Made by a program: the position numbers and the translations under genes
Shown: piece by piece, positions 8,872 to 63,203 of the stretch
Numbering within the stretch: the first letter of the stretch is position 1
Layout: each line of letters begins with the position of its first letter
Origin: Escherichia coli
GTDB lineage: Bacteria; Pseudomonadota; Gammaproteobacteria; Enterobacterales; Enterobacteriaceae
Assembly (NCBI RefSeq): GCF_024502345.1
Contig: NZ_JALDNN010000002.1
DNA: 64,000 nucleotides
Strand: one strand, 5' to 3'
The notes under the pieces: generated by a model
What the model saw: the letters and a program-made list of their open reading frames with translations, nothing else
Told to the model about the DNA's origin: nothing
The model's database searches: none

Positions 8872-10143
8872 TTAACCGATCCTCGCAACGGGGATATCTC
8901 TCCAGCGAGTGGTGTACGCAGGGGAGAGCATATCGCGTTTCATTTGCCAGGATGGCACAATTCCTCTACCGGCAAACCATACTTTACCCAGCCCTGAGTT
9001 GTTGATCCCGTCCAGAACCCTCATCAGCTCAGCACTGTGAGGGCGTGGCGGGCGTTCGTCGAACAGCTGCAGCTGCGAAACGCCGGAGCCGGTGAAGTCA
9101 TTCAGCATAACTCCGGCTTTGGCATACCTGTGCCCATCCCTCCAGATACGCTCCAGAGCCGTTGTGGCGGCTGCAATGATGTCCCTGGTGTCCTGAGTGG
9201 GTGTAAGAAGTTTTTCCGTAGCCACGTTGCCGTAGTAAGGCTCTTTAACGGCGAACGGAGACGTTTTGATGAAAACGGAAATATGCCGGCAATACTGGTG
9301 CTCTTTACGCAGCTTTTCAGAGGCCCGCTCTGCGTGCTGACAGATAGCCTGACGGAGTGACTCGTACTCCGTGATCTTCACGCCAAAACTGCGGCTGCAG
9401 ACAATTTGCTGTTTCGTCGGAGGGGCTTCCTCAAGCGAAAGGCAGCTTTCCCCGTTCAGTTCCCGTACCGTTCGCTCAAGGACGACAGAAAAATTTTTGC
9501 GGATGAAGGCCGGGTTCGTCAGAGCCAGATCGAGCGCGGTCTTAATGCCCAGTACATTCAGCTTGCGTGCAATACGGTTACCCACCCCCCAGATTTCTTC
9601 AACCGGCTGCAGTGAAAGCAGTTTCCGCGTTCTCTGCGGATTTCCCCTGGTCAGAGCAAGTACGCCACGAAACTGTTTCCACTCTTTTGAGGCCCACTGG
9701 GCTGATTTTGCGAGGGTCTTCGTTGGCCCGGCGCCCACGCCAATGGTAAGGCGGGTACAGTCATACACGTGCTGACGCAGCTGCCGGCCGAAGTCCTCAA
9801 GCTCCATACAGTGCTCCACGCCGGTCAGGTCGAGGAACATCTCATCAATTGAATACTGTTCCACCCTGGGGGCCAGTTCCTCCAGGCTGTTCATCACGCG
9901 CGCCGACATCGAAGCATAAAGTTCATAGTTACTTGAAAACGCATATATTTTTTCCGGGTATCTTTCGTTTTTTATCTGAAACCACGGAGTTCCCATTTTG
10001 ATCCAGCGCTTCGCCTCGGCACTGCGAGCGATTACGTTCCCGTCGTTGTTGCTCAGGACGACTATCGGCTTTCCTTTCAAATCCGGTCGGAAAACACGTT
10101 CACAGCTGGCATAGAAGCTGTTCACATCGGCCAGGGCAAACAT
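8872..10143 (-). CDS. umuC: error-prone DNA polymerase V subunit UmuC (Y-family polymerase)
   Basis: 423 aa; [22 protein letters not shown]... N-terminus and Y-family polymerase motifs. Confidence 0.95.
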
Positions 10144-10574
10144 CAGTACATCTCCCTCGGGCGGTGGATGATATGCGTGACGACGCCAAAGATATCCAGC
10201 TCATCGGGGTCAGGATAAGTCGGCGACCAGGAGGCATTCATGGGCTGCAGCGTCAGTCGAGGCGTCAGCAGAAGCCGTTTAACCGTAAACTCCCCCTGTA
10301 CGCTGGCGACAACGATATCGCCGTGCCGCGGCTTTTCAGCACTGTCCACAACCAGCAGATCGCCATTGTACAGACTACCGTCCGCCATGCTGTCTCCGCT
10401 GGCACGCAGGTAGTACGTCGCGCTCGGATGCCGTATGCAGTAATCATGGAGATCCAGATCGGACTCGACATAGTCAGCGGCAGGGCTGGGAAAACCGCAG
10501 CTGGCCAGATCGGCAAACAATGGATGAGCCTGTGGCGGGTGTTCTTTCCCGGTGCTGAAAAGCTGTAGCTTCAT
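10143..10574 (-). CDS. umuD: UmuD (LexA-like self-cleaving peptidase S24)
   Basis: 143 aa from ATG at 10574 ([13 protein letters not shown]...), preceded by GGAGGA RBS; stop overlaps umuC start; the 270-aa track ORF is an upstream over-extension. Confidence 0.9.
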
Positions 10575-10597
10575 CTTTCCTCCTGATACTCTAATTT

Positions 10598-10617
10598 TAC
10601 TGGTTATGCATACAGTG
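10598..10617. promoter_or_regulatory. LexA (SOS) box TACTGGTTATGCATACAGTG
   Basis: CTG-N10-CAG core with one mismatch to consensus, about 25 bp upstream of umuD start. Confidence 0.7.
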
Positions 10618-12562
10618 TGCGCCGGGAGACCGGTAGAGATCAAGGGGTGAAAGTCCCCGACCATTGAAGGACCAGCAATCCACAAGGTCCCCGAGTCATG
10701 CGTTGCATACCGCGAGGTATGGGGCGAAGCGTTGACAGGGGTGTTGACAGGCCAGCCATTGAGCCACGAAATGTATATTAAATTACCGGGTGCCGACGTT
10801 GTACTGTTAACGGAAGGCAACATCATAGGGTGCGATACTGCGAGTGCCACATGGACCCGGCGGGGTCTGAGACCCTGGCATGTCAATACGATCTCTACGC
10901 GGGAACCGGGAGATCTCCCCTCTGACCATCTGCCAGTGTCGGAGATGGCCCGCACCGGGAAGACGAGGAGTCATAGCCGGTGATGTACGGAGAGGAGAAG
11001 TCGGACTCGCTCATAGTAGCGGCGAAGCAGGCGAACAACCCGAAAGGAGCGGAGTCAGTGGAGCGAAGGAGCGGGGCCAAGGGGAACGTGGAACAGCCAC
11101 ACATGCGCCGGACACAGAGCCGGGAAAGCATGTCACAGAGGCTGTCACGCGTGCGGGAAGCTGCGAAGCAGCGGAAGAAAGAACGGTTTACAGCATTGTT
11201 CCACCTGCTGACAGTCGAAGCACTGGAAGCCGCATTCCTCTCCCTGAGCAGGAAAGCGGCCGCCGGAGTGGATGGCATCAGGTGGATGGACTACGCCGGA
11301 AACATGAAGAACAACATAACAGATCTGCACCGGAGGCTACATCAGGGCAGCTACAGGGCGCAGCCCGGCAGGCGTCACTACATCCCAAAAGCGGATGGAA
11401 AACAACGCCCGCTCGGCATCGCCTCGCTGGAGGACAAGATCGTCCAGTATGCGCTGGTGAAAATCCTGAACGCAGTCTATGAAAACGACTTTATGGGGTT
11501 CTCATACGGGTTCAGACCCGGGCGAAGCCAGCACGATGCACTGGACGCACTGGCCACAGGGCTGGTACGCACTAACGTAAACTGGGTACTGGATGCCGAC
11601 ATCAGTCAGTTCTTCGACAGGGTGAGCCACGAATGGCTGATCAGGTTCACAGAGCATCGGATCGGCGACCGGAGCGTAATCAGGCTCATACGTAAGTGGC
11701 TCACAGCCGGGACGTTGGAGGAGGGTCAATGGCGAGCAACGGAGGAAGGCACCCCACAGGGTGCGGTCATCTCACCGCTGCTGGCAAACATATACCTCCA
11801 CTACGTCTTCGATCTGTGGGCGCATCAGTGGCGACGTCGCTATGCCACAGGCAATGTGGTAATGGTCAGATACGCCGATGACATCGTCATCGGGTTCGAC
11901 AAACGATACGATGCCCGGCGCTTCCGTATAGCCATGCAGCGCAGACTGAGGGAGTTCGGACTCACGGTTCACCCGGAGAAAACCCGTCTGATGGAGTTCG
12001 GCCGCTTCGCTGCCGAAAACCGTGCCATCAGGGGAAAAGGCAAACCAGAAACGTTCAACTTCCTCGGGTTCACGCACATCAGCGGGAAAGATCGCAACGG
12101 CAGGTTCATGCTGATACGAAAGACCCGCCGGGATCGGATGACGGCAACTCTGAAAGCCATCAAAGACGGTCTGCGAAGGCGCTGGCATTACTCAATCCCC
12201 GAACAGGGAAAATGGCTCAGGAGAGTGGTTCAGGGATACCTGAACTATCACTCGGTACCGGGCAACTTCCCCACCATGCAGAAGTTCAGGACACACGTAA
12301 CAAACCTCTGGCGCCGGGCGCTCAGGCGCAGGAGCCAGAAGGATGATACGACCTGGACGAAAGCAAACAAACTGGCAGCCGCATGGCTACCAAGGGTTCG
12401 GGTTCTTCATCCATGGCCTGTGGAGCGGTTCACCGCCAGACACCCGAGGCAGGAGCCCGGTGCGTAAATCGCGCACGCCGGGATCTGTGCGGGGGGTATC
12501 CGGTAACGGGTATCCCTACCGCGACATATTTAACAGCGTGACGATAATCCAGATCGCCTGCC
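10617..12562 (+). mobile_element. group II intron (bacterial, RT/maturase-encoding); 3' boundary approximate
   Basis: GTGCG at 10617-10621, about 360 bp structured leader, RT/maturase ORF, GNRA-loop hairpin near the 3' end; IS1 abuts at about 12563. Confidence 0.7.
10983..12467 (+). CDS. group II intron reverse transcriptase/maturase
   Basis: RT motifs incl. YADD (...MVRYADDIVIGF...), maturase domain, no endonuclease domain. Confidence 0.9.
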   Translation: MYGEEKSDSLIVAAKQANNPKGAESVERRSGAKGNVEQPHMRRTQSRESMSQRLSRVREAAKQRKKERFTALFHLLTVEALEAAFLSLSRKAAAGVDGIRWMDYAGNMKNNITDLHRRLHQGSYRAQPGRRHYIPKADGKQRPLGIASLEDKIVQYALVKILNAVYENDFMGFSYGFRPGRSQHDALDALATGLVRTNVNWVLDADISQFFDRVSHEWLIRFTEHRIGDRSVIRLIRKWLTAGTLEEGQWRATEEGTPQGAVISPLLANIYLHYVFDLWAHQWRRRYATGNVVMVRYADDIVIGFDKRYDARRFRIAMQRRLREFGLTVHPEKTRLMEFGRFAAENRAIRGKGKPETFNFLGFTHISGKDRNGRFMLIRKTRRDRMTATLKAIKDGLRRRWHYSIPEQGKWLRRVVQGYLNYHSVPGNFPTMQKFRTHVTNLWRRALRRRSQKDDTTWTKANKLAAAWLPRVRVLHPWPVERFTARHPRQEPGA

Positions 12563-12618
12563 GGATAATGGTGCCAACTTACTGATTTAGTGTACGATGG
12601 TGTCTTTGAGGTGCTCCA

Positions 12619-12894
12619 GTGGCTTCCATCTCCATCAGTTGTCCCTCCTGCTCAGCTACTGAAGGCGTGGTGCGTAACGGTAAAAGTACTGCCGGACATC
12701 AGCGCTATCTCTGCTCTCACTGCCGTAAAACATGGCAGCTACAGTTCACTTACACCGCCTCTCAGCCCGGTACGCACCAGAAAATCATTGATATGGCCAT
12801 GAATGGCGTTGGATGCCGGGCAACCGCCCGCATTATGGGCGTTGGCCTCAACACGATTTTACGTCACTTAAAAAACTCAGGCCGCAGTCGGTAA
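12619..12894 (+). CDS. insA: IS1 InsA
   Basis: [91 protein letters not shown]. Confidence 0.95.
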
Positions 12895-13316
12895 CCTCAC
12901 GCATACAACCGGGCAGTGACGTCATTGTCTGCGCGGAAATGGACGAACAGTGGGGCTACGTCGGGGCTAAATCACGTCAGCGCTGGTTATTTTACGCCTA
13001 TGGCAGGATGTGCAGGACGGTGGTGGCACGCGTCTTTGGTGAGCGTACTCTGGCCACGCTGGAGCGTCTTCCGGGCCTGCTGTCGGCCTTTGAGGTCGTG
13101 GTATGGATGACGGATGGCTGGCCGCTTTATGAATCCCGCCTGAAGGGAGAACTGCACGTTATCAGCAAGCGATATACGCAGCGAATTGAGCGGCATAACC
13201 AGAATCTGAGGCAGCATCTGGCAAGGCTGGGCAGGAAGTCACTGTCGTTCTCAAAATCGGTGGCGCTGCATGACAAAGTCATCGGGCATTATCTGAACAT
13301 AAAACACTATCAGTAA
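12813..13316 (+). CDS. insB: IS1 InsB (expressed as InsAB' by -1 frameshift)
   Basis: 167-aa ORF overlapping insA 3' end in -1 frame. Confidence 0.9.
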
Positions 13317-13331
13317 GTTGGAGTCATTACC

Positions 13332-13633
13332 AACCAGTTCACCACCTACTCGCTCCGCGATTGTGGCAGTCTTCGAAATCCCCGGACGATCCGCCTTTAT
13401 GAAAGTCTTGCTCAATTCAAATCTTCAGGCTTATGGGTTACTACTCATGCTTGGTTAAATGACCGTTTCGTCTTACCGGAATCCCAGCAGAAGAACTTGG
13501 CAGAGTTGAAACGATCTTTCCTTGATCCTGCACTCAAGCAGATAAATGAGAAAACACCTTTACTTGCTAAGTATAGTATTGATGATTCAGGAAAATTTCT
13601 GTTCTCAATAATTGATAAGCAAAATCCCGTCTG
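13332..13633 (+). pseudogene. 3' fragment of a replication-initiator-like gene, 5'-truncated by IS1
   Basis: Frame open from the IS1 end; ...TTYSLRDCGSLRNPRTIRLYESLAQF... resembles the Rep_3 motif; ends at stop 13631-13633. Confidence 0.4.
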
Positions 13634-13683
13634 ACATAAATCAGCACACATGAGCCTGTCATTTGACAAATTTTTGTCATGAA

Positions 13684-14183
13684 GATGGGCGGATTTCCAC
13701 ACAGCACCGGCGCCCGGTAAGGTGGGCGGATTCCCACACGGCACCGGCGCCCGGTAAGGTGGGCGGATTCCCACACGGCACCGGCGCCCGGTAAGGTGGG
13801 CGGATTCCCACACGGCACCGGCGCCCGGCAAGATGGGCGGATTTCCACACAGCACCGGCGCCCGGTAAGGTGGGCGGATTCCCACACGGCACCGGCGCCC
13901 GGTAAGGTGGGCGGATTCCCACACGGCACCGGCGCCCCGCAAGATGGGCGGATTTCCACACAGCACCGGCGCCCGGTAAGGTGGGCGGATTTCCACACAG
14001 CACCGGCGCGCGGCAAGGTGGGCGGATTTCCACACGGCACCGGCGCCCGGCAAGGTGGGCGGATTTCCACACAGCACCGGCGCCCGGCAAGGTGGGCGGA
14101 TTCCCACACGGCACCGGCGCGCGGCAAGGTGGGCGGATTCCCACACGGCACCGGCGCCCGGCAAGGCGGGCCGATTCCCATAT
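13684..14183. repeat. tandem array of about 13.5 copies of a 37-bp GC-rich repeat
   Basis: Contiguous units g[ga]tgggcggatt[tc]ccacac[ag]gcaccggcgc[cg]cgg[tc]aag with two alternating variants. Confidence 0.95.
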
Positions 14184-14406
14184 CGACATGTATGTAGCTT
14201 GTGTTATCTGTGGATTGTGCAGCTCAGCGGGTCGCTGGTCGTATGGCGGAGTGTCCCCCGTAACCGGCCGCGTGCGGCCGCTAACGCGCAGTACGGCGCC
14301 GCGTCCCGCAGGCGGGCCGCCGTTCCCGCGCGCAGCACTGCGCACCCCCGTGGGGGACGTGCGGCAGCTGCGTGGCGGTGACCGGCACGAACCGCATGTT
14401 AGGTCG

Positions 14407-58827: not shown

Positions 58828-59169
58828 TTGAGAGAGGTAACCAGGATGACAAAACATAACCGATTTCCCCCTGAAGTTCGTCAACGCGCTATTCGTATGG
58901 TTCTGGAAAACCAGAATACCTACAACTCACAATGGGCCGCTATCTGCTCCATTGCCCCTAAGATCGGCTGCACTCCCGAGACATTGCGTATCTGGATCCG
59001 TCAGCAGGAGCCCGTTGATGATGAGCAGAATGCGCTGACTGCCAGCGAACGCCAGCGTCTGAAAGAACTGGAGCGGGAAGTCCGCGAGCTGCGCCGCAGC
59101 AATGATATTCTGCGTCAGGCTTCAGCGTATTTTGCCCAGGCGGAGCTCGACCGCCACTGGAAAAAATAA
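58828..59169 (+). CDS. IS3-family transposase OrfA
   Basis: ...RFPPEVRQRAIRMVLENQNTYNSQWAAICSIAPKIGCTPETLRIWIRQQ... Confidence 0.9.
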   Translation: MREVTRMTKHNRFPPEVRQRAIRMVLENQNTYNSQWAAICSIAPKIGCTPETLRIWIRQQEPVDDEQNALTASERQRLKELEREVRELRRSNDILRQASAYFAQAELDRHWKK

Positions 59170-59583
59170 TGCCGCTTCTGGAAAATCTGAGCGGTGAACA
59201 CGGGGTCGGGCCAGTCTGTCATGAGCTGGATATTGCTCCGTCAACGTACTACTGGCATCAGCAACGCCGGAAGTGTCCTGAACGACGCAGTAGTCGGGAT
59301 AAACGCGATGCCGTGCTGATACCTGAGATACAGCGCGTATACGAAGAAAACTACAGCGTTTACGGTGTGCGTAAGGTCTGGCGACAGCTAAAACGTGAAG
59401 GTGTCGGCGTTGCCCGCTGCACCATTGAGCGCCTGATGAAAGCCCTGCAGCTACGTGGGGTGACACGCGGCAAAAGTGTCAGAACCACCCGCAGCAACAA
59501 AGCCGAAACACCGCAGGATCGGGTGAACAGGCAGTTCGTGGCTGAACGGCCCGATAGTCTTTGGGTGGCCGATTTTACCTACG
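59169..59583 (+). pseudogene. IS3-family OrfB, exon-1 part (interrupted by group II intron after ...FTY)
   Basis: ...ERPDSLWVADFTY then intron GTGTG. Confidence 0.85.
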
Positions 59584-61740: not shown

Positions 61741-63113
61741 CCGGCGTTGATGGCGTGAACAAAACAATGCTACAGGCCAGACTGGCTGTTGAGCTGCAAA
61801 TCCTCAGGGATGAATTACTCTCAGGCCACTACCAGCCCTTGCCCGCCAGACGGGTTTACATCCCTAAAAGCAACGGCAAACTGCGACCACTGGGTATCCC
61901 CGCGTTGCGGGATCGTATTGTTCAGCGGGCCATGCTGATGGCGATGGAGCCGATATGGGAGAGTGATTTTCATACGCTCTCATATGGCTTCCGGCCTGAG
62001 CGCAGTGTCCACCACGCGATCCGCACGGTGAAATTACAGCTCACAGACTGTGGTGAAACCCGGGGACGCTGGGTGATTGAAGGCGACCTGTCCAGTTACT
62101 TCGACACCGTACATCATCGACTGCTGATGAAGGCTGTACGCCGCAGGATCAGTGACGCACGTTTCATGACTCTGCTGTGGAAAACCATCAAGGCGGGACA
62201 TATCGATGTCGGTCTCTTTCGGGCGGCCAGTGAAGGTGTGCCACAGGGCGGTGTTATATCGCCGCTATTATCGAACATCATGCTGAATGAGTTCGATCAA
62301 TACCTGCATGAGCGCTACCTGAGCGGGAAAGCCAGAAAAGATCGGTGGTACTGGAATAACAGTATCCAACGGGGCCGAAGTACGGCGGTCAGAGAAAACT
62401 GGCAGTGGAAACCCGCGGTGGCGTACTGCCGCTATGCCGATGATTTTGTCCTCATCGTCAAAGGCACCAAAGCACAGGCGGAAGCCATCAGGGAGGAGTG
62501 TCGGGGTGTGCTCGAAGGCAGTCTGAAACTCAGGCTGAACATGGATAAGACTAAAATCACCCATGTTAATGACGGCTTTATCTTTCTGGGGCACAGGATC
62601 ATTCGCAAACGCAGTCGTTATGGCGAGATGCGAGTGGTCTCAACGATCCCGCAGGAGAAAGCCAGAAACTTCGCCGCATCGCTGACAGCACTGTTATCAG
62701 GCAACTACAGTGAAAGCAAAGTCGATATGGCTGAACAACTCAACCGAAAACTGAAAGGCTGGGCCATGTTCTATCAGTTCGTTGATTTTAAGGCCAAAGT
62801 CTTCAGTTATATCGACCGTGTCGTGTTCTGGAAGCTGGCTCACTGGCTGGCCCGCAAATACCGTACAGGTATCGCTTTCCTGATGAGGTGGTGGTGTAAA
62901 CCACCGAAACCGGGTCAGAGCAAAACGTGGGTTTTATTTGGTAAAACCAATCACGGCAAGCTCAGCGGCGAAATACTGTACCGGTTGGTGGGGCAAGGTA
63001 AGAAGCTGTTCCGCTGGCGGCTACCCGAAGGTAATCCCTATCTGAGGACGGAGACCAGAAACACGTATACATCGCGCTTTACAGAAGTGGCAATGGCGTT
63101 CGCCAGCATTTAA
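61741..63113 (+). pseudogene. intron RT/maturase, C-terminal part
   Basis: ...PGVDGVNKTMLQ... RT domains with YADD (...YCRYADDFVLIV...) and maturase region. Confidence 0.85.
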
Positions 63114-63118
63114 ATGGA

Positions 63119-63152
63119 GAGCCGGATGCGCTGAAAGGTGCACGTCCGGTTC
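63119..63152 (+). ncRNA. group II intron domain V (GAGCCGGATGCGCTGAAAGGTGCACGTCCGGTTC)
   Basis: Canonical domain V hairpin with AGC triad and GAAA tetraloop, 6 nt after the RT stop. Confidence 0.85.
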
Positions 63153-63203
63153 GGGGAGGAGAGGCAGGGAAATAGTCCGACTACGCCCTGCCTCTTACTC
63201 TAC

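Follow-up and report, generated by a model that had tools for sequence, protein, structure and literature searches.

Why does a group II intron lie at the SOS operator of a umuDC operon, on the opposite strand, and what has the insertion done to the operator, the promoter and the intron itself? An earlier note on this locus, drawn from a 64,000-nt stretch of Escherichia coli DNA (the window), had placed the intron 1-2 bp from a LexA-like palindrome, in a juxtaposition that could have been fortuitous, and had suggested that its 3' end might be missing. We now put the probability at about 90% that positions 10617-12525 hold an intact, mobile Kl.pn.I5 element that retrohomed into the umuDC operator, and that the clade to which it belongs targets LexA operators. 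Annotations were taken from NZ_CP073793, a record 99.9% identical to the window. The features of the locus, with strand in parentheses, are:

8872-10143 (-): umuC homologue, a Y-family DNA polymerase of 423 aa (ORF; NZ_CP073793 annotation)
10143-10574 (-): umuD homologue, 143 aa (ORF sequence; annotated umuD, WP_016946790.1)
10579-10584 (-): umuD Shine-Dalgarno sequence, AGGAGG (sequence)
10598-10616 (no strand): 19 retained bases of the 20-bp umuDC LexA operator, forming the intron 5' exon on the + strand (empty-site alignment, position weight matrix)
10617-12525 (+): complete group II intron Kl.pn.I5 (= Se.ma.I1), 1909 nt, from GUGCG to CGCGAC (empty site, reference identity)
12526-12563 (no strand): native 3' exon, the displaced upstream part of the umuDC promoter (contiguous with 10616 in intron-free plasmids)
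12564-13331 (+): IS1 (IS1X3-like), 768 bp (annotated IS1X3; junction shared by empty-site plasmids)

The LexA operator in front of umuD

The sequence TACTGGTTATGCATACAGTG at 10598-10617, 23 nt 5' of the umuD ATG (10574), is a strong LexA box. A position weight matrix built from 24 classical E. coli sites, the intron-target sites of this study excluded, scores it at 20.1 bits, against a runner-up of 9.9 in the 64-kb window and a background across the window of -28 ± 9; the palindrome proposed upstream of umuD is therefore borne out. The bare CTG-N10-CAG motif occurs 38 times in the window, where about 16 would be expected, and the credibility of the box thus derives from its full-length score, its place before umuD and its conservation rather than from the minimal motif. 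Homologous plasmid operons carry the box at the equivalent position; the position of the core promoter is predicted.

Read on the umuD sense strand, the two operator alleles are TACTGTATGCATAACCAGTA (empty) and CACTGTATGCATAACCAGTA (occupied), the former matching the TACTG(TA)5CAGTA palindrome with its CTG-N10-CAG core. The empty site scores 22.3 bits and the occupied one 20.1, both within the range of the 24 classical sites (13.0-26.8), so the operator appears to remain about as good after insertion. With the CTG-N10-CAG core preserved, as well as 19 of the 20 bases, LexA would be expected still to bind the occupied operator.

An intact intron inside the box

Alignment with an intron-free plasmid, in which ...GCATACAGT runs directly into ATATTTAAC..., gives the native box as TACTGGTTATGCATACAGTA and places the intron not beside the 20-bp box but within it, between positions 19 and 20. 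The last A of the native box has been replaced by the first G of the intron, and the 20th operator base is now the A at 12526, which doubles as the +1 base of the target. Intron-free alleles are common: a 76-nt empty-site junction is covered to 80% or more in 1009 plasmid records, the empty site aligns at 99% identity, and the complete box is unbroken in these homologues. The earlier note had expected its boundary to be contradicted by any homologous plasmids that lack the intron but share the upstream sequence; such plasmids exist, yet this comparison with intron-free umuDC promoters confirms the boundary at 10616/10617, with the intron's GTGCG start at 10617 on the strand opposite umuD.

The relation to IS1 also had to be revised. 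IS1 does not abut the intron, since the native 3' exon (12526-12563, 38 bp) lies between them, and an identical IS1 junction is found in intron-free plasmids (L001 and L149; NZ_CP018117 and NZ_CP035216). That IS1 occupies the same place where there is no intron indicates that it is older than the intron insertion. Truncation of the 3' end by IS1 is excluded by this alignment, by folding, and by the conservation of domains 5 and 6 in diverged relatives; the intron runs full length to 12525. The elements of the ribozyme, its target and its protein are:

10605-10611 (+): IBS2, TATGCAT (7/7 pairs with EBS2 AUGUAUA, one of them G-U)
10612-10616 (+): IBS1, ACAGT (5/5 pairs with EBS1)
10650-10875 (+): ribozyme D1-D4 core, Rfam RF02005 (group-II-D1D4-6; 186.6 bits, E = 1e-54, full model length)
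10771-10777 (+): EBS2, AUGUAUA, in a D1 internal loop (unpaired in the Rfam consensus structure)
10802-10807 (+): EBS1 loop, UACUGU (terminal loop in the Rfam structure)
10983-12467 (+): reverse transcriptase/maturase, 494 aa from ATG (ORF; annotated ltrA)
12453-12485 (+): domain 5 (fold; AGC triad 12454-12456, AC bulge, non-GNRA loop)
12489-12522 (+): domain 6 (fold; its branch point, the bulged A 12518, lies 7 nt short of the 3' splice site)

Modelling of the RNA domains, which had been proposed as a check, shows domains 5 and 6 folding as expected. Domain 5 is atypical in having G.A where other introns carry G.U, in addition to its non-GNRA loop, and the Rfam D5/D6 model RF00029 had no match in 10400-12800 even at E ≤ 1; these features are nevertheless kept in relatives that are 73-78% identical, and substitutions in the domain 6 helix of relatives preserve pairing. 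The stop codon of the protein that the intron encodes (IEP) falls within the domain 5 loop. In a Pfam search of the IEP, RVT_1 was the sole match (residues 134-364, E = 2e-46), with no maturase (X) domain called and no HNH/endonuclease domain found. The 5' GUGCG and 3' ...GAC ends, the bulged A, the ribozyme domains, the reverse transcriptase ORF, the EBS/IBS pairing and the existence of empty alleles together identify a group II intron. In the IncR plasmid literature the intron is labelled IIB.

The element itself is a known one. Over its 1909 nt the intron is 99.79% identical (4 mismatches) to the reference copy in pK245 (NC_010886), which sits in a homologous umuD operator at the same position and in the same antisense orientation. 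The two loci differ in the operator spacer (ATACAT in pK245, ATGCAT in the window) and in the 3' flank, which is an ArdC-like (zincin-like metallopeptidase) region in pK245 and belongs to the IS1-bearing lineage in the window. Together with the reference copy, more than 1650 plasmids share the insertion site of the window. The names Kl.pn.I5 and Se.ma.I1 are those of previous work (PMC3522654, PMC6764390), and papers on IncR plasmids count retA, beside umuCD, among the backbone genes (PMC7707992, PMC12310702).

SOS boxes as homing sites

Near-identical copies of the intron occur at many sites, and their flanks reveal what the element prefers. Because the probes lay entirely within the intron, the flanks of the 144 intron 5' ends that they retrieved are unbiased; CTG-N10-CAGT is present at 131 of these ends, which represent 103 distinct flanks, though not all distinct flank pairs are independent insertions, as some (L028, L060) are chimeras from recombination between intron copies. 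In the first set examined, seven plasmid contexts, the cut point within the LexA box was identical. Across the sites, only positions -19 to +1 have a high information content, and positions -5 to -1 are near invariant (at least 96 of the 103 distinct sites at each). The box is thus the specific homing site of the intron rather than a chance neighbour, a conclusion to which the co-variation of EBS1 described below also leads.

Occupied operators include those of E. coli chromosomal umuDC and tisB, of mucAB, of dinI/tum-like and colicin-like genes and, in Ralstonia and Duganella, of imuAB and uvrD; the neighbouring genes are of SOS type (umuD/mucA, dinI/tum-like, colicin-like, uvrD, imuA-imuB, sbmC-like). 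No insertion was found at recA, lexA or sulA among the surveyed sites. The E. coli chromosomal umuDC operator that carries a copy, TACTGTATATAAAAACAGT^A, restores an entire LexA box of 20 bp immediately 5' of annotated umuD, and this box appears to match the umuDC operator of K-12. The clade that uses SOS boxes extends to nucleotide identities of 73-78% and IEP identities of about 69%, and has members in Gamma- and Betaproteobacteria (Enterobacterales, Burkholderia, Ralstonia and Duganella), with targets on plasmids, prophages and chromosomes in both orientations. One 77% relative on a Klebsiella pneumoniae chromosome (L151) lies beside an sbmC-like gene and has a truncated IEP.

The full motif is missing at 13 of the 144 ends. 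In most of these the right half, with IBS2 and IBS1, is retained and the left half is degenerate or truncated by an IS (L061, L077, L109, L090, L093 and L007 are used half-box sites of this kind), which suggests that the intron can probably do without the left third of the box; a few look ectopic.

Pairing between the guides and the box

In the window, all 12 of the box nucleotides opposite EBS2 and EBS1 are paired, and the 5' U of the EBS1 loop could in addition pair with a +1 A or G. The consensus SOS box, TACTGTATATATATACAGTA, is an almost perfect complement of the EBS2/EBS1 guides, from which it follows that the homing sites of the Kl.pn.I5 clade are LexA operators at large. Copy by copy, EBS2 pairs with its own IBS2 at a mean of 5.94 of 7 positions, compared with 3.41 ± 0.18 when the IBS2 sequences are shuffled. 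The EBS1 loop is invariant within the SOS-box clade while its stem varies in sequence between lineages, and the loop changes together with the target: UACUGU goes with ACAGT^A in the SOS clade, UUACUGG with CAGTA^T in a Ralstonia sub-lineage whose insertion point is shifted by +1, and, among outgroups, UCAGAU with ATCTGA^, UACAGAU with ATCTGT^ and UCACAAA with TTTGTG^.

The guides also match the orientation of the window copy, with 12/12 pairs on the strand antisense to umuD and 9/12 on the other. As a general rule, orientation set fully by guide pairing is unsupported: at 52 sites the strand used pairs better than the alternative in 25, equally in 11 and worse in 16. Since pairing is not always predictive, strand choice is presumably also subject to further influences, for example the direction of replication or selection.

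We therefore envisage that the intron RNA would perform the recognition, with EBS2 AUGUAUA and EBS1 ACUGU reading 12 consecutive bases (TATGCAT-ACAGT) and the +1 A able to pair with a U, and that reverse splicing would put the intron into the operator, between its positions 19 and 20. Because the IEP has no endonuclease domain, priming of the cDNA would probably depend on replication forks, in the manner of RmInt1-type introns.

Alternative explanations

Ectopic retrotransposition does occur among group II introns, and a few surveyed copies lie at non-box sequences (L058, L164, L166), so a chance or ectopic insertion beside the umuDC operator, its proximity without mechanistic meaning, deserves consideration. 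It is extremely unlikely, given that 131 of 144 ends fall at the same position of CTG-N10-CAG, where the CTG half would be expected at a frequency of 1/64 once IBS1 has fixed the CAG, that the site of the window is fully paired with the guides, and that the reference copy and so many plasmids share this site. Nor could a single clonally copied locus dominate the count, which is contradicted by the spread of the 103 flanks over chromosomes, plasmids and prophages of several orders. The great similarity of the last 12-13 nt before the intron at all sites might instead mean that the palindrome is part of the mobile element, either a terminal sequence that it brings with it or a target duplication that arises on insertion, and was no pre-existing operator. 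To this we give virtually no credence: intron-free homologues carry the complete 20-bp box, the E. coli chromosome site rebuilds all of it at umuD, the spacers differ from site to site, and the box is not repeated at the 3' junction.

Selection after insertion is a different matter, as the intron might insert widely and persist only at the SOS operators of accessory genes. The occupied sites adjoin dispensable or accessory SOS genes (umuDC, tisB, dinI-like, bacteriocin and prophage genes), and the absence of copies from recA, lexA and sulA suggests that purifying selection acts on which boxes stay occupied. As the main explanation it is nonetheless very improbable, because it can yield neither nucleotide-exact placement nor the complementarity of guides to their own targets, and cannot explain why EBS1 and the insertion point shifted together by +1 in the Ralstonia sub-lineage. 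We consider it unlikely, though deserving of more weight, that the main determinant is the IEP, or else a hairpin or cruciform into which the box folds in single-stranded DNA, with RNA pairing secondary. Positions -19 to -13 (TACTGTA) hold 1.0-1.7 bits beyond any EBS pairing, and the IEP lacks an endonuclease, like those of class C. However, conservation of the left half is what would be expected if the targets are functional LexA operators, and sites in which that half is degenerate or replaced by an IS are still used. Moreover, IBS1 and IBS2 both lie in the 3' arm of the palindrome, such that a hairpin would compete with guide pairing; for these reasons recognition of a hairpin in the style of IIC introns is disfavoured, and retrohoming guided by RNA pairing to the LexA operator remains our preferred reading.

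Consequences for umuDC expression

Read along the sense strand of umuD, everything native that lies upstream of operator position 2 has been moved 1909 bp away. The geometry proposed in the earlier note thus holds, and any -35 element located there has been replaced by intron sequence. A loose hexamer scan, which yields promoter candidates only and decides nothing, gave TGGATT-17-TATACT as the top-scoring candidate of the empty site, and the intron interrupts its -10. The insertion spares another possible -10, TAAAAT, just 3' of the box; the -35 belonging to it is TAAATA (3/6, spacer 18) before insertion and CGCACA (3/6, spacer 16) after, and this candidate would be roughly unchanged. A threshold promoter scan of the occupied and empty sites found nothing relevant, and the one minus-strand scan match within the intron, GTGGCA-17-TATGAT (10850-10822), is at chance level (1 against 0.5 expected).

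The operon would lose its native -35, and its -10 as well if that is TATACT, and would then be either weakened or run by a hybrid or cryptic promoter still overlapped by the operator; in silico, the regulatory effect of the insertion is ambiguous. Being antisense, the window copy would not be transcribed from the umuDC promoter and could not be spliced from umuDC mRNA.

Discussion

Kl.pn.I5, or 'retA', and its place beside umuCD are already known from thousands of sequenced plasmids, and since both element and location have been catalogued, the local finding alone is ordinary. What appears to be new is a transcription-factor operator, the LexA box, as the homing site of a group II intron. Previous work derived a homing-site consensus from three copies and termed the sites 'intergenic', and LexA operators were not identified there (PMC3522654); in the searchable full-text literature on Kl.pn.I5, IncR and pOXA-48 the intron is never connected with LexA. 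The intron is probably active in nature, as is suggested indirectly by its near-identical copies at many sites, by two new insertions within one hospital outbreak (PMC8269217) and by a reported plasmid-to-chromosome copy (PMC3522654).

Class C (IIC) introns, including IIC-attC, offer one parallel, being a lineage with an endonuclease-less IEP that is specialised on a generic noncoding regulatory motif recurring on mobile elements. They differ in reading a stem-loop (terminator or attC) plus short IBS1/IBS3 sequences and in inserting downstream of the hairpin, whereas Kl.pn.I5 uses linear pairing of 12-13 nt through EBS2 and EBS1 (with +1), has a ribozyme with EBS2 that matches Rfam D1D4-6, and inserts inside a protein operator. 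The intron accordingly does not fit class C: its EBS2 is present and pairs, and it inserts in the 3' arm of the palindrome rather than past a terminator.

Michel et al. 2007 reportedly described specialised IIB1 'groEL-type' introns at start and stop codons. These resemble the Kl.pn.I5 clade in occupying a stereotyped, functionally defined niche across host genes; they have an endonuclease-containing CL1 reverse transcriptase, a subdomain Ia and sites at the codons of housekeeping genes (bioRxiv 10.1101/2024.12.23.630110), whereas the Kl.pn.I5 clade is endonuclease-less and lies in operators within SOS gene promoters. The endonuclease-less RmInt1, of bacterial class D, and the IS-homing E. coli introns E.c.I1/I3/I4/I9 are similar in their endonuclease-less or site-specific retrohoming, which EBS-IBS pairing guides into a repeat of mobile DNA (PMC3522654, PMC5010178), but their homing sites lie within particular IS elements, while the repeat used by Kl.pn.I5 is a transcription-factor site of unrelated genes and replicons.

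Several copies lie in the sense orientation, between a LexA-repressed promoter/operator and its gene (E. coli chromosomal umuDC, as in strain Z503, NZ_CP090305; IncHI1B umuDC; a prophage dinI-like gene and phrog_3893). This arrangement raises the tentative idea, which we regard as possible but less than probable, that the Kl.pn.I5 clade is a DNA-damage-gated retroelement, with LexA controlling both halves of its life cycle and insertions rewiring SOS genes. Sense copies, being downstream of a LexA-repressed promoter/operator, would make intron RNA and reverse transcriptase only upon LexA cleavage; bound LexA would occlude the homing sites, which would be exposed in the same SOS episode, coinciding with stalled forks and with moving conjugative or prophage DNA. 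A sense copy would place a spliceable 1.9-kb leader before the gene and an antisense copy, as in the window, would uncouple the gene from upstream promoter elements, and the intron might thereby modulate plasmid-borne error-prone polymerases.

If true, targeting of LexA operators would provide bacterial group II introns with a third generic-motif niche, in addition to terminators/attC and start/stop codons, and would give a simple account of how one intron has spread over unrelated plasmids, prophages and chromosomes; coupling of its retromobility to the SOS response would be predicted. The mutagenic-polymerase operons of very widespread resistance plasmids (IncR, IncFII(K), IncL/M pOXA-48-like and IncHI1B) would then come in two regulatory forms, one carrying the intron and one lacking it, and this difference would matter for mutagenesis under stress in clinical Klebsiella and Enterobacter.

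Results

Operator and intron boundaries

Homologues of umuC and umuD form one operon on the minus strand of the window, and the box-like palindrome that the earlier note had picked out upstream of umuD proved real, with the GTGCG start of a group II intron running from 10617 on the opposite strand to umuD.

Features of the umuDC-intron-IS1 region (window coordinates)
8872-10143, minus strand: umuC homologue (ORF and annotation)
10143-10574, minus strand: umuD homologue, ATG at 10574
10579-10584, minus strand: AGGAGG in Shine-Dalgarno position upstream of umuD
10598-10617: LexA-box-like sequence TACTGGTTATGCATACAGTG
10605-10611: IBS2, TATGCAT
10612-10616: IBS1, ACAGT
From 10617, plus strand: group II intron start motif GTGCG
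10617-12525, plus strand: group II intron Kl.pn.I5, 1909 nt (alignment to empty site)
10771-10777: EBS2, AUGUAUA, pairs with IBS2
10803-10807: EBS1, ACUGU, pairs with IBS1
10983-12467: ORF for an intron-encoded protein (IEP), 494 aa, with reverse-transcriptase domain
12453-12485: domain 5 (D5), AGC triad and AC bulge
12489-12522: domain 6 (D6), bulged A at 12518, 7 nt before the intron end
12564-13331: IS1, 38 bp past the intron 3′ end

Read on the umuD sense strand, the native 20-mer operator is TACTGTATGCATAACCAGTA. A position weight matrix (PWM) was built from 24 classical E. coli LexA sites, with umuDC, sbmC and tisAB excluded from the training set; it gave the native box 22.3 bits and the intron-occupied version (CACTG...) 20.1 bits, compared with 13.0-26.8 over known sites and 9.9 for the runner-up 20-mer in the 64-kb window. 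On these scores the umuDC box is a credible SOS operator, and it should stay one after intron insertion; operator position 1/20 varies among the classical sites of the PWM set.

An empty-site query, in which the 5′ flank was fused to the sequence following the predicted intron 3′ end, aligned over its full length with many plasmids at ~99% identity. Alignment with the intron-free plasmid NZ_CP018117 (...GCATACAGT^ATATTTAACAGCG..., where ^ marks the insertion point) sets the boundary at 10616/10617 and the intron limits at exactly 10617-12525. The association with the SOS box noted earlier thus stands; the placement 1-2 bp away from it does not, as the insertion lies inside the box. A 76-nt empty-junction query was at least 80% covered in 1009 plasmid records, and the umuD plus intron arrangement was covered to this extent in at least 1653.

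The suspected 3′ truncation was not borne out, since D5 and D6 are present, and are kept in relatives of just 73-78% identity. The Rfam group-II-D1D4-6 model matched at full length (10650-10875, 186.6 bits). The RF00029 model detected neither D5 nor D6 in Kl.pn.I5 of the window, probably because this D5 has a G.A, where group II introns usually have G.U, together with a non-GNRA loop, both conserved across the clade. The IEP frame enters D5, its TAA stop codon (12465-12467) lying in the terminal loop. A Pfam scan of the IEP found RVT_1 alone and no HNH endonuclease domain. IS1, thought to abut the intron, lies 38 bp away, and intron-free plasmids carry the same IS1 at the same junction; it is therefore older than the intron and cannot be the cause of a truncation. 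Its left inverted repeat (window 12565) reads GATAATGG, compared with GGTAATGG in intron-free plasmids, a single G-to-A change at repeat position 2.

Several other features were observed in the window. A truncated replication-initiator gene fragment lies right of IS1 (13332-13633), followed by an array of ~42-bp direct repeats (GGTGGGCGGATTCCCACACGGCACCGGCGCCCGGTAA...; within 13332-14200) that look like iterons. An IS3-type ALIL frameshift pseudoknot is found at 59124-59240. The window also contains another group II intron, unrelated to the first, with a reverse-transcriptase-like ORF (61755-63113, plus strand, 452 aa) and canonical D5/D6 (63117-63203; RF00029, 64.9 bits); judged by eye, its 3′ exon looks to continue into a putative IS3-family transposase orfB.

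The SOS box as homing site

Many matches to the junction query comprised the intron and no more of the 5′ exon than its final 5-27 nt. In a panel of such loci, a 99.7-99.9% identical intron occupies the same position every time, each in a different LexA box.

Kl.pn.I5 insertion sites in different LexA boxes
IncFII(K) umuDC: AACTGTATATATATACAGT^A, intron antisense to gene
IncL/M mucAB-like: AACTGTTTATACATACAGT^A, antisense
IncFIB/HI1B umuDC: TACTGGTTATATATACAGT^G, sense
ColE1-type plasmid, colicin/klebicin-like gene: TACTGTGTATACATACAGT^A, sense
E. coli chromosomal umuDC operator: TACTGTATATAAAAACAGT^A, sense
E. coli tisB/istR operator: TACTGTATAAATAAACAGT^A, antisense

Flanks were surveyed with a 30-40-nt probe lying entirely within the intron, across species-representative genomes, metagenome contigs and viral contigs. 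This yielded 145 intron 5′ ends, 144 of them with at least 20 nt upstream, and 103 distinct 30-nt flanks; CTG-N10-CAGT precedes the intron in 131/144. Most positions between -19 and +1 carry 1-2 bits of information (0.5-0.6 at spacer positions -9 and -8), falling to at most 0.4 bits from -20 outward and at most 0.75 from +2. The conserved block thus coincides exactly with the 20-bp LexA box; its consensus is TACTGTATAT(A/T)(T/A/C)A(T/A)ACAGT^A. Most exceptions retain the right half, with the left half degenerate or replaced by an IS; a few look ectopic. Targeted boxes adjoin genes for umuD/mucA homologues, DinI and Tum-like proteins, a bacteriocin, tisB and the prophage small-protein family phrog_3893, which are typical SOS gene types. 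The bacteriocin gene was named from composition alone (a glycine-rich, colicin-like N-terminus), and a family search gave no support for that name.

In the Rfam structure CGAAAUGUAUAUUAAAUUA is unpaired and UACUGU lies within a hairpin loop. Guide pairing with the window box is 12/12 on the used strand versus 9/12 on the opposite one, which fits the orientation of the intron there. Over 52 sites, however, pairing favours the used strand in 25 and the other strand in 16, with a tie in 11. For 52 distinct sites with readable EBS2, pairing with the copy's own IBS2 averaged 5.94/7, versus 3.41 ± 0.18 with IBS2 shuffled. The +1 A/G could pair with the U immediately 5′ of EBS1.

Relatives sharing the 5′ end at 73-78% overall identity, from Burkholderia cenocepacia (3 copies), Paraburkholderia and metagenomes, all lie in SOS boxes in unchanged register. 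More distant homologues were sampled along identity to the window IEP.

Targets and EBS1 loops of IEP homologues
74%, Ralstonia, one copy beside uvrD: TACTGTATAAATATACAGT^ and AACTGGATGGATATACAGT^A; UACUGU
72%, Duganella, upstream of imuA-imuB: TACTGTGTATTTATACAGT^; UACUGU
69%, Ralstonia sub-lineage, one copy upstream of imuA-imuB: ...ACAGTA^T, one base later; UUACUGG
64-68%, outgroups: ATCTGA^, ATCTGT^, TTTGTG^; UCAGAU, UACAGAU, UCACAAA

In the 69% sub-lineage, a one-base shift of the EBS1 loop parallels the shifted insertion point, and every outgroup loop complements its own target. This co-variation supports site recognition by the RNA guide. Because the outgroup targets are unlike LexA boxes, SOS-box specialisation marks a clade.

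Individual copies

Two metagenome copies have chimeric flanks: L028 joins an IncFII(K)-type umuD 5′ flank to an IncR/IS1-type 3′ flank, and L060 an IncR-type 5′ flank to an L005-type 3′ flank. They suggest that homologous recombination between introns at different SOS boxes reshuffles plasmid backbones. On viral contig L108 two introns stand in tandem, Kl.pn.I5 running straight into the 5′ end of a slightly different second copy (GTGCGCCGGGAGACCGGTAAAGATC). A box that already contains an intron (19 nt plus the intron G) is apparently open to repeat targeting; on a target-site PWM, the occupied window site still reaches 22.8 bits. On metagenome contig L058, a 236-nt element that has both ends of the intron (96.6% identical) but no ORF lies outside a box, at ATTCGTATATGTAAATTGT^A; it may be a deletion derivative or an assembly artefact. 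L164 and L166, copies of the +1-shifted sub-lineage on Ralstonia solanacearum chromosomes, occupy non-box sites sharing the IBS1-like (C/T)C(C/A)GTA^T alone, one of them disrupting the gene for a T4SS coupling protein; both have the appearance of ectopic retrotransposition events. Exact Kl.pn.I5 also occurs in two assemblies that bear the names Arthrobacter mobilis and uncultured Prevotella (L011, L012), probably on contaminating enterobacterial plasmid contigs, since the L011 flank hardly differs from the Klebsiella ColE1-type plasmid site.

Discussion

The intron itself was already known. Kl.pn.I5, also named Se.ma.I1 (PMC6764390), has its reference copy on IncR plasmid pK245 (PMC3522654), and it appears in IncR papers as 'retA', a group IIB intron reverse transcriptase counted as a backbone gene beside umuCD (PMC7707992, PMC12310702). 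Compared directly, the pK245 copy is 99.79% identical to that of the window and lies, also antisense, at the matching position of a homologous umuD operator (TACTGGTTATACATACAGT^A); the window copy is thus the known element at its reference site. Leclercq and Cordaux (2012) based a homing consensus on three copies, which they described as intergenic; their paper (PMC3522654) contains none of the words LexA, promoter and palindrome. In the searchable full-text literature, which mostly leaves out subscription journals and so makes an earlier description possible, no group II intron was tied to a LexA operator target.

As the earlier note had anticipated, native upstream sequence is replaced by the intron: the operator, with 19/20 bases, is still joined to umuD, and everything beyond it is displaced by 1.9 kb. 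A simple hexamer scan gave the following candidate promoters.

Candidate umuDC promoters
Empty site, best: TGGATT-17-TATACT; -10 overlaps the box 5′ edge and is split by the intron
Empty site, second: TAAATA-18-TAAAAT; -10 directly past the box, survives the intron
Occupied site: CGCACA-16-TAAAAT; the -10 that survives, its new -35 supplied by the intron junction
Occupied site: TTGATC-18-CACACT; weak hybrid, operator still overlapped

The TATACT geometry recurs in the IncL/M and IncHI1B operons, and in the IncFII(K) operon a strong candidate (TTGAAA-17-AATAAT) lies entirely upstream of the cut point. A change in umuDC expression is predicted, its direction and size hinging on the position of the transcription start. 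Being antisense, the window intron cannot be removed from umuDC mRNA by splicing, and a promoter scan found no plus-strand promoter directly upstream of it. Sense copies elsewhere keep the operator and upstream promoter intact ahead of the intron and are probably transcribed under LexA control; splicing of that transcript needs enough 5′ exon and hence depends on the start site. We offer the effect on umuDC regulation and any LexA gating of mobility as hypotheses.

In conclusion, we have high confidence that Kl.pn.I5 homes to the SOS box. The notable point goes beyond this copy: endonuclease-less introns of one clade, with guides complementary to the SOS box, have colonised LexA operators on plasmids, prophages and chromosomes.
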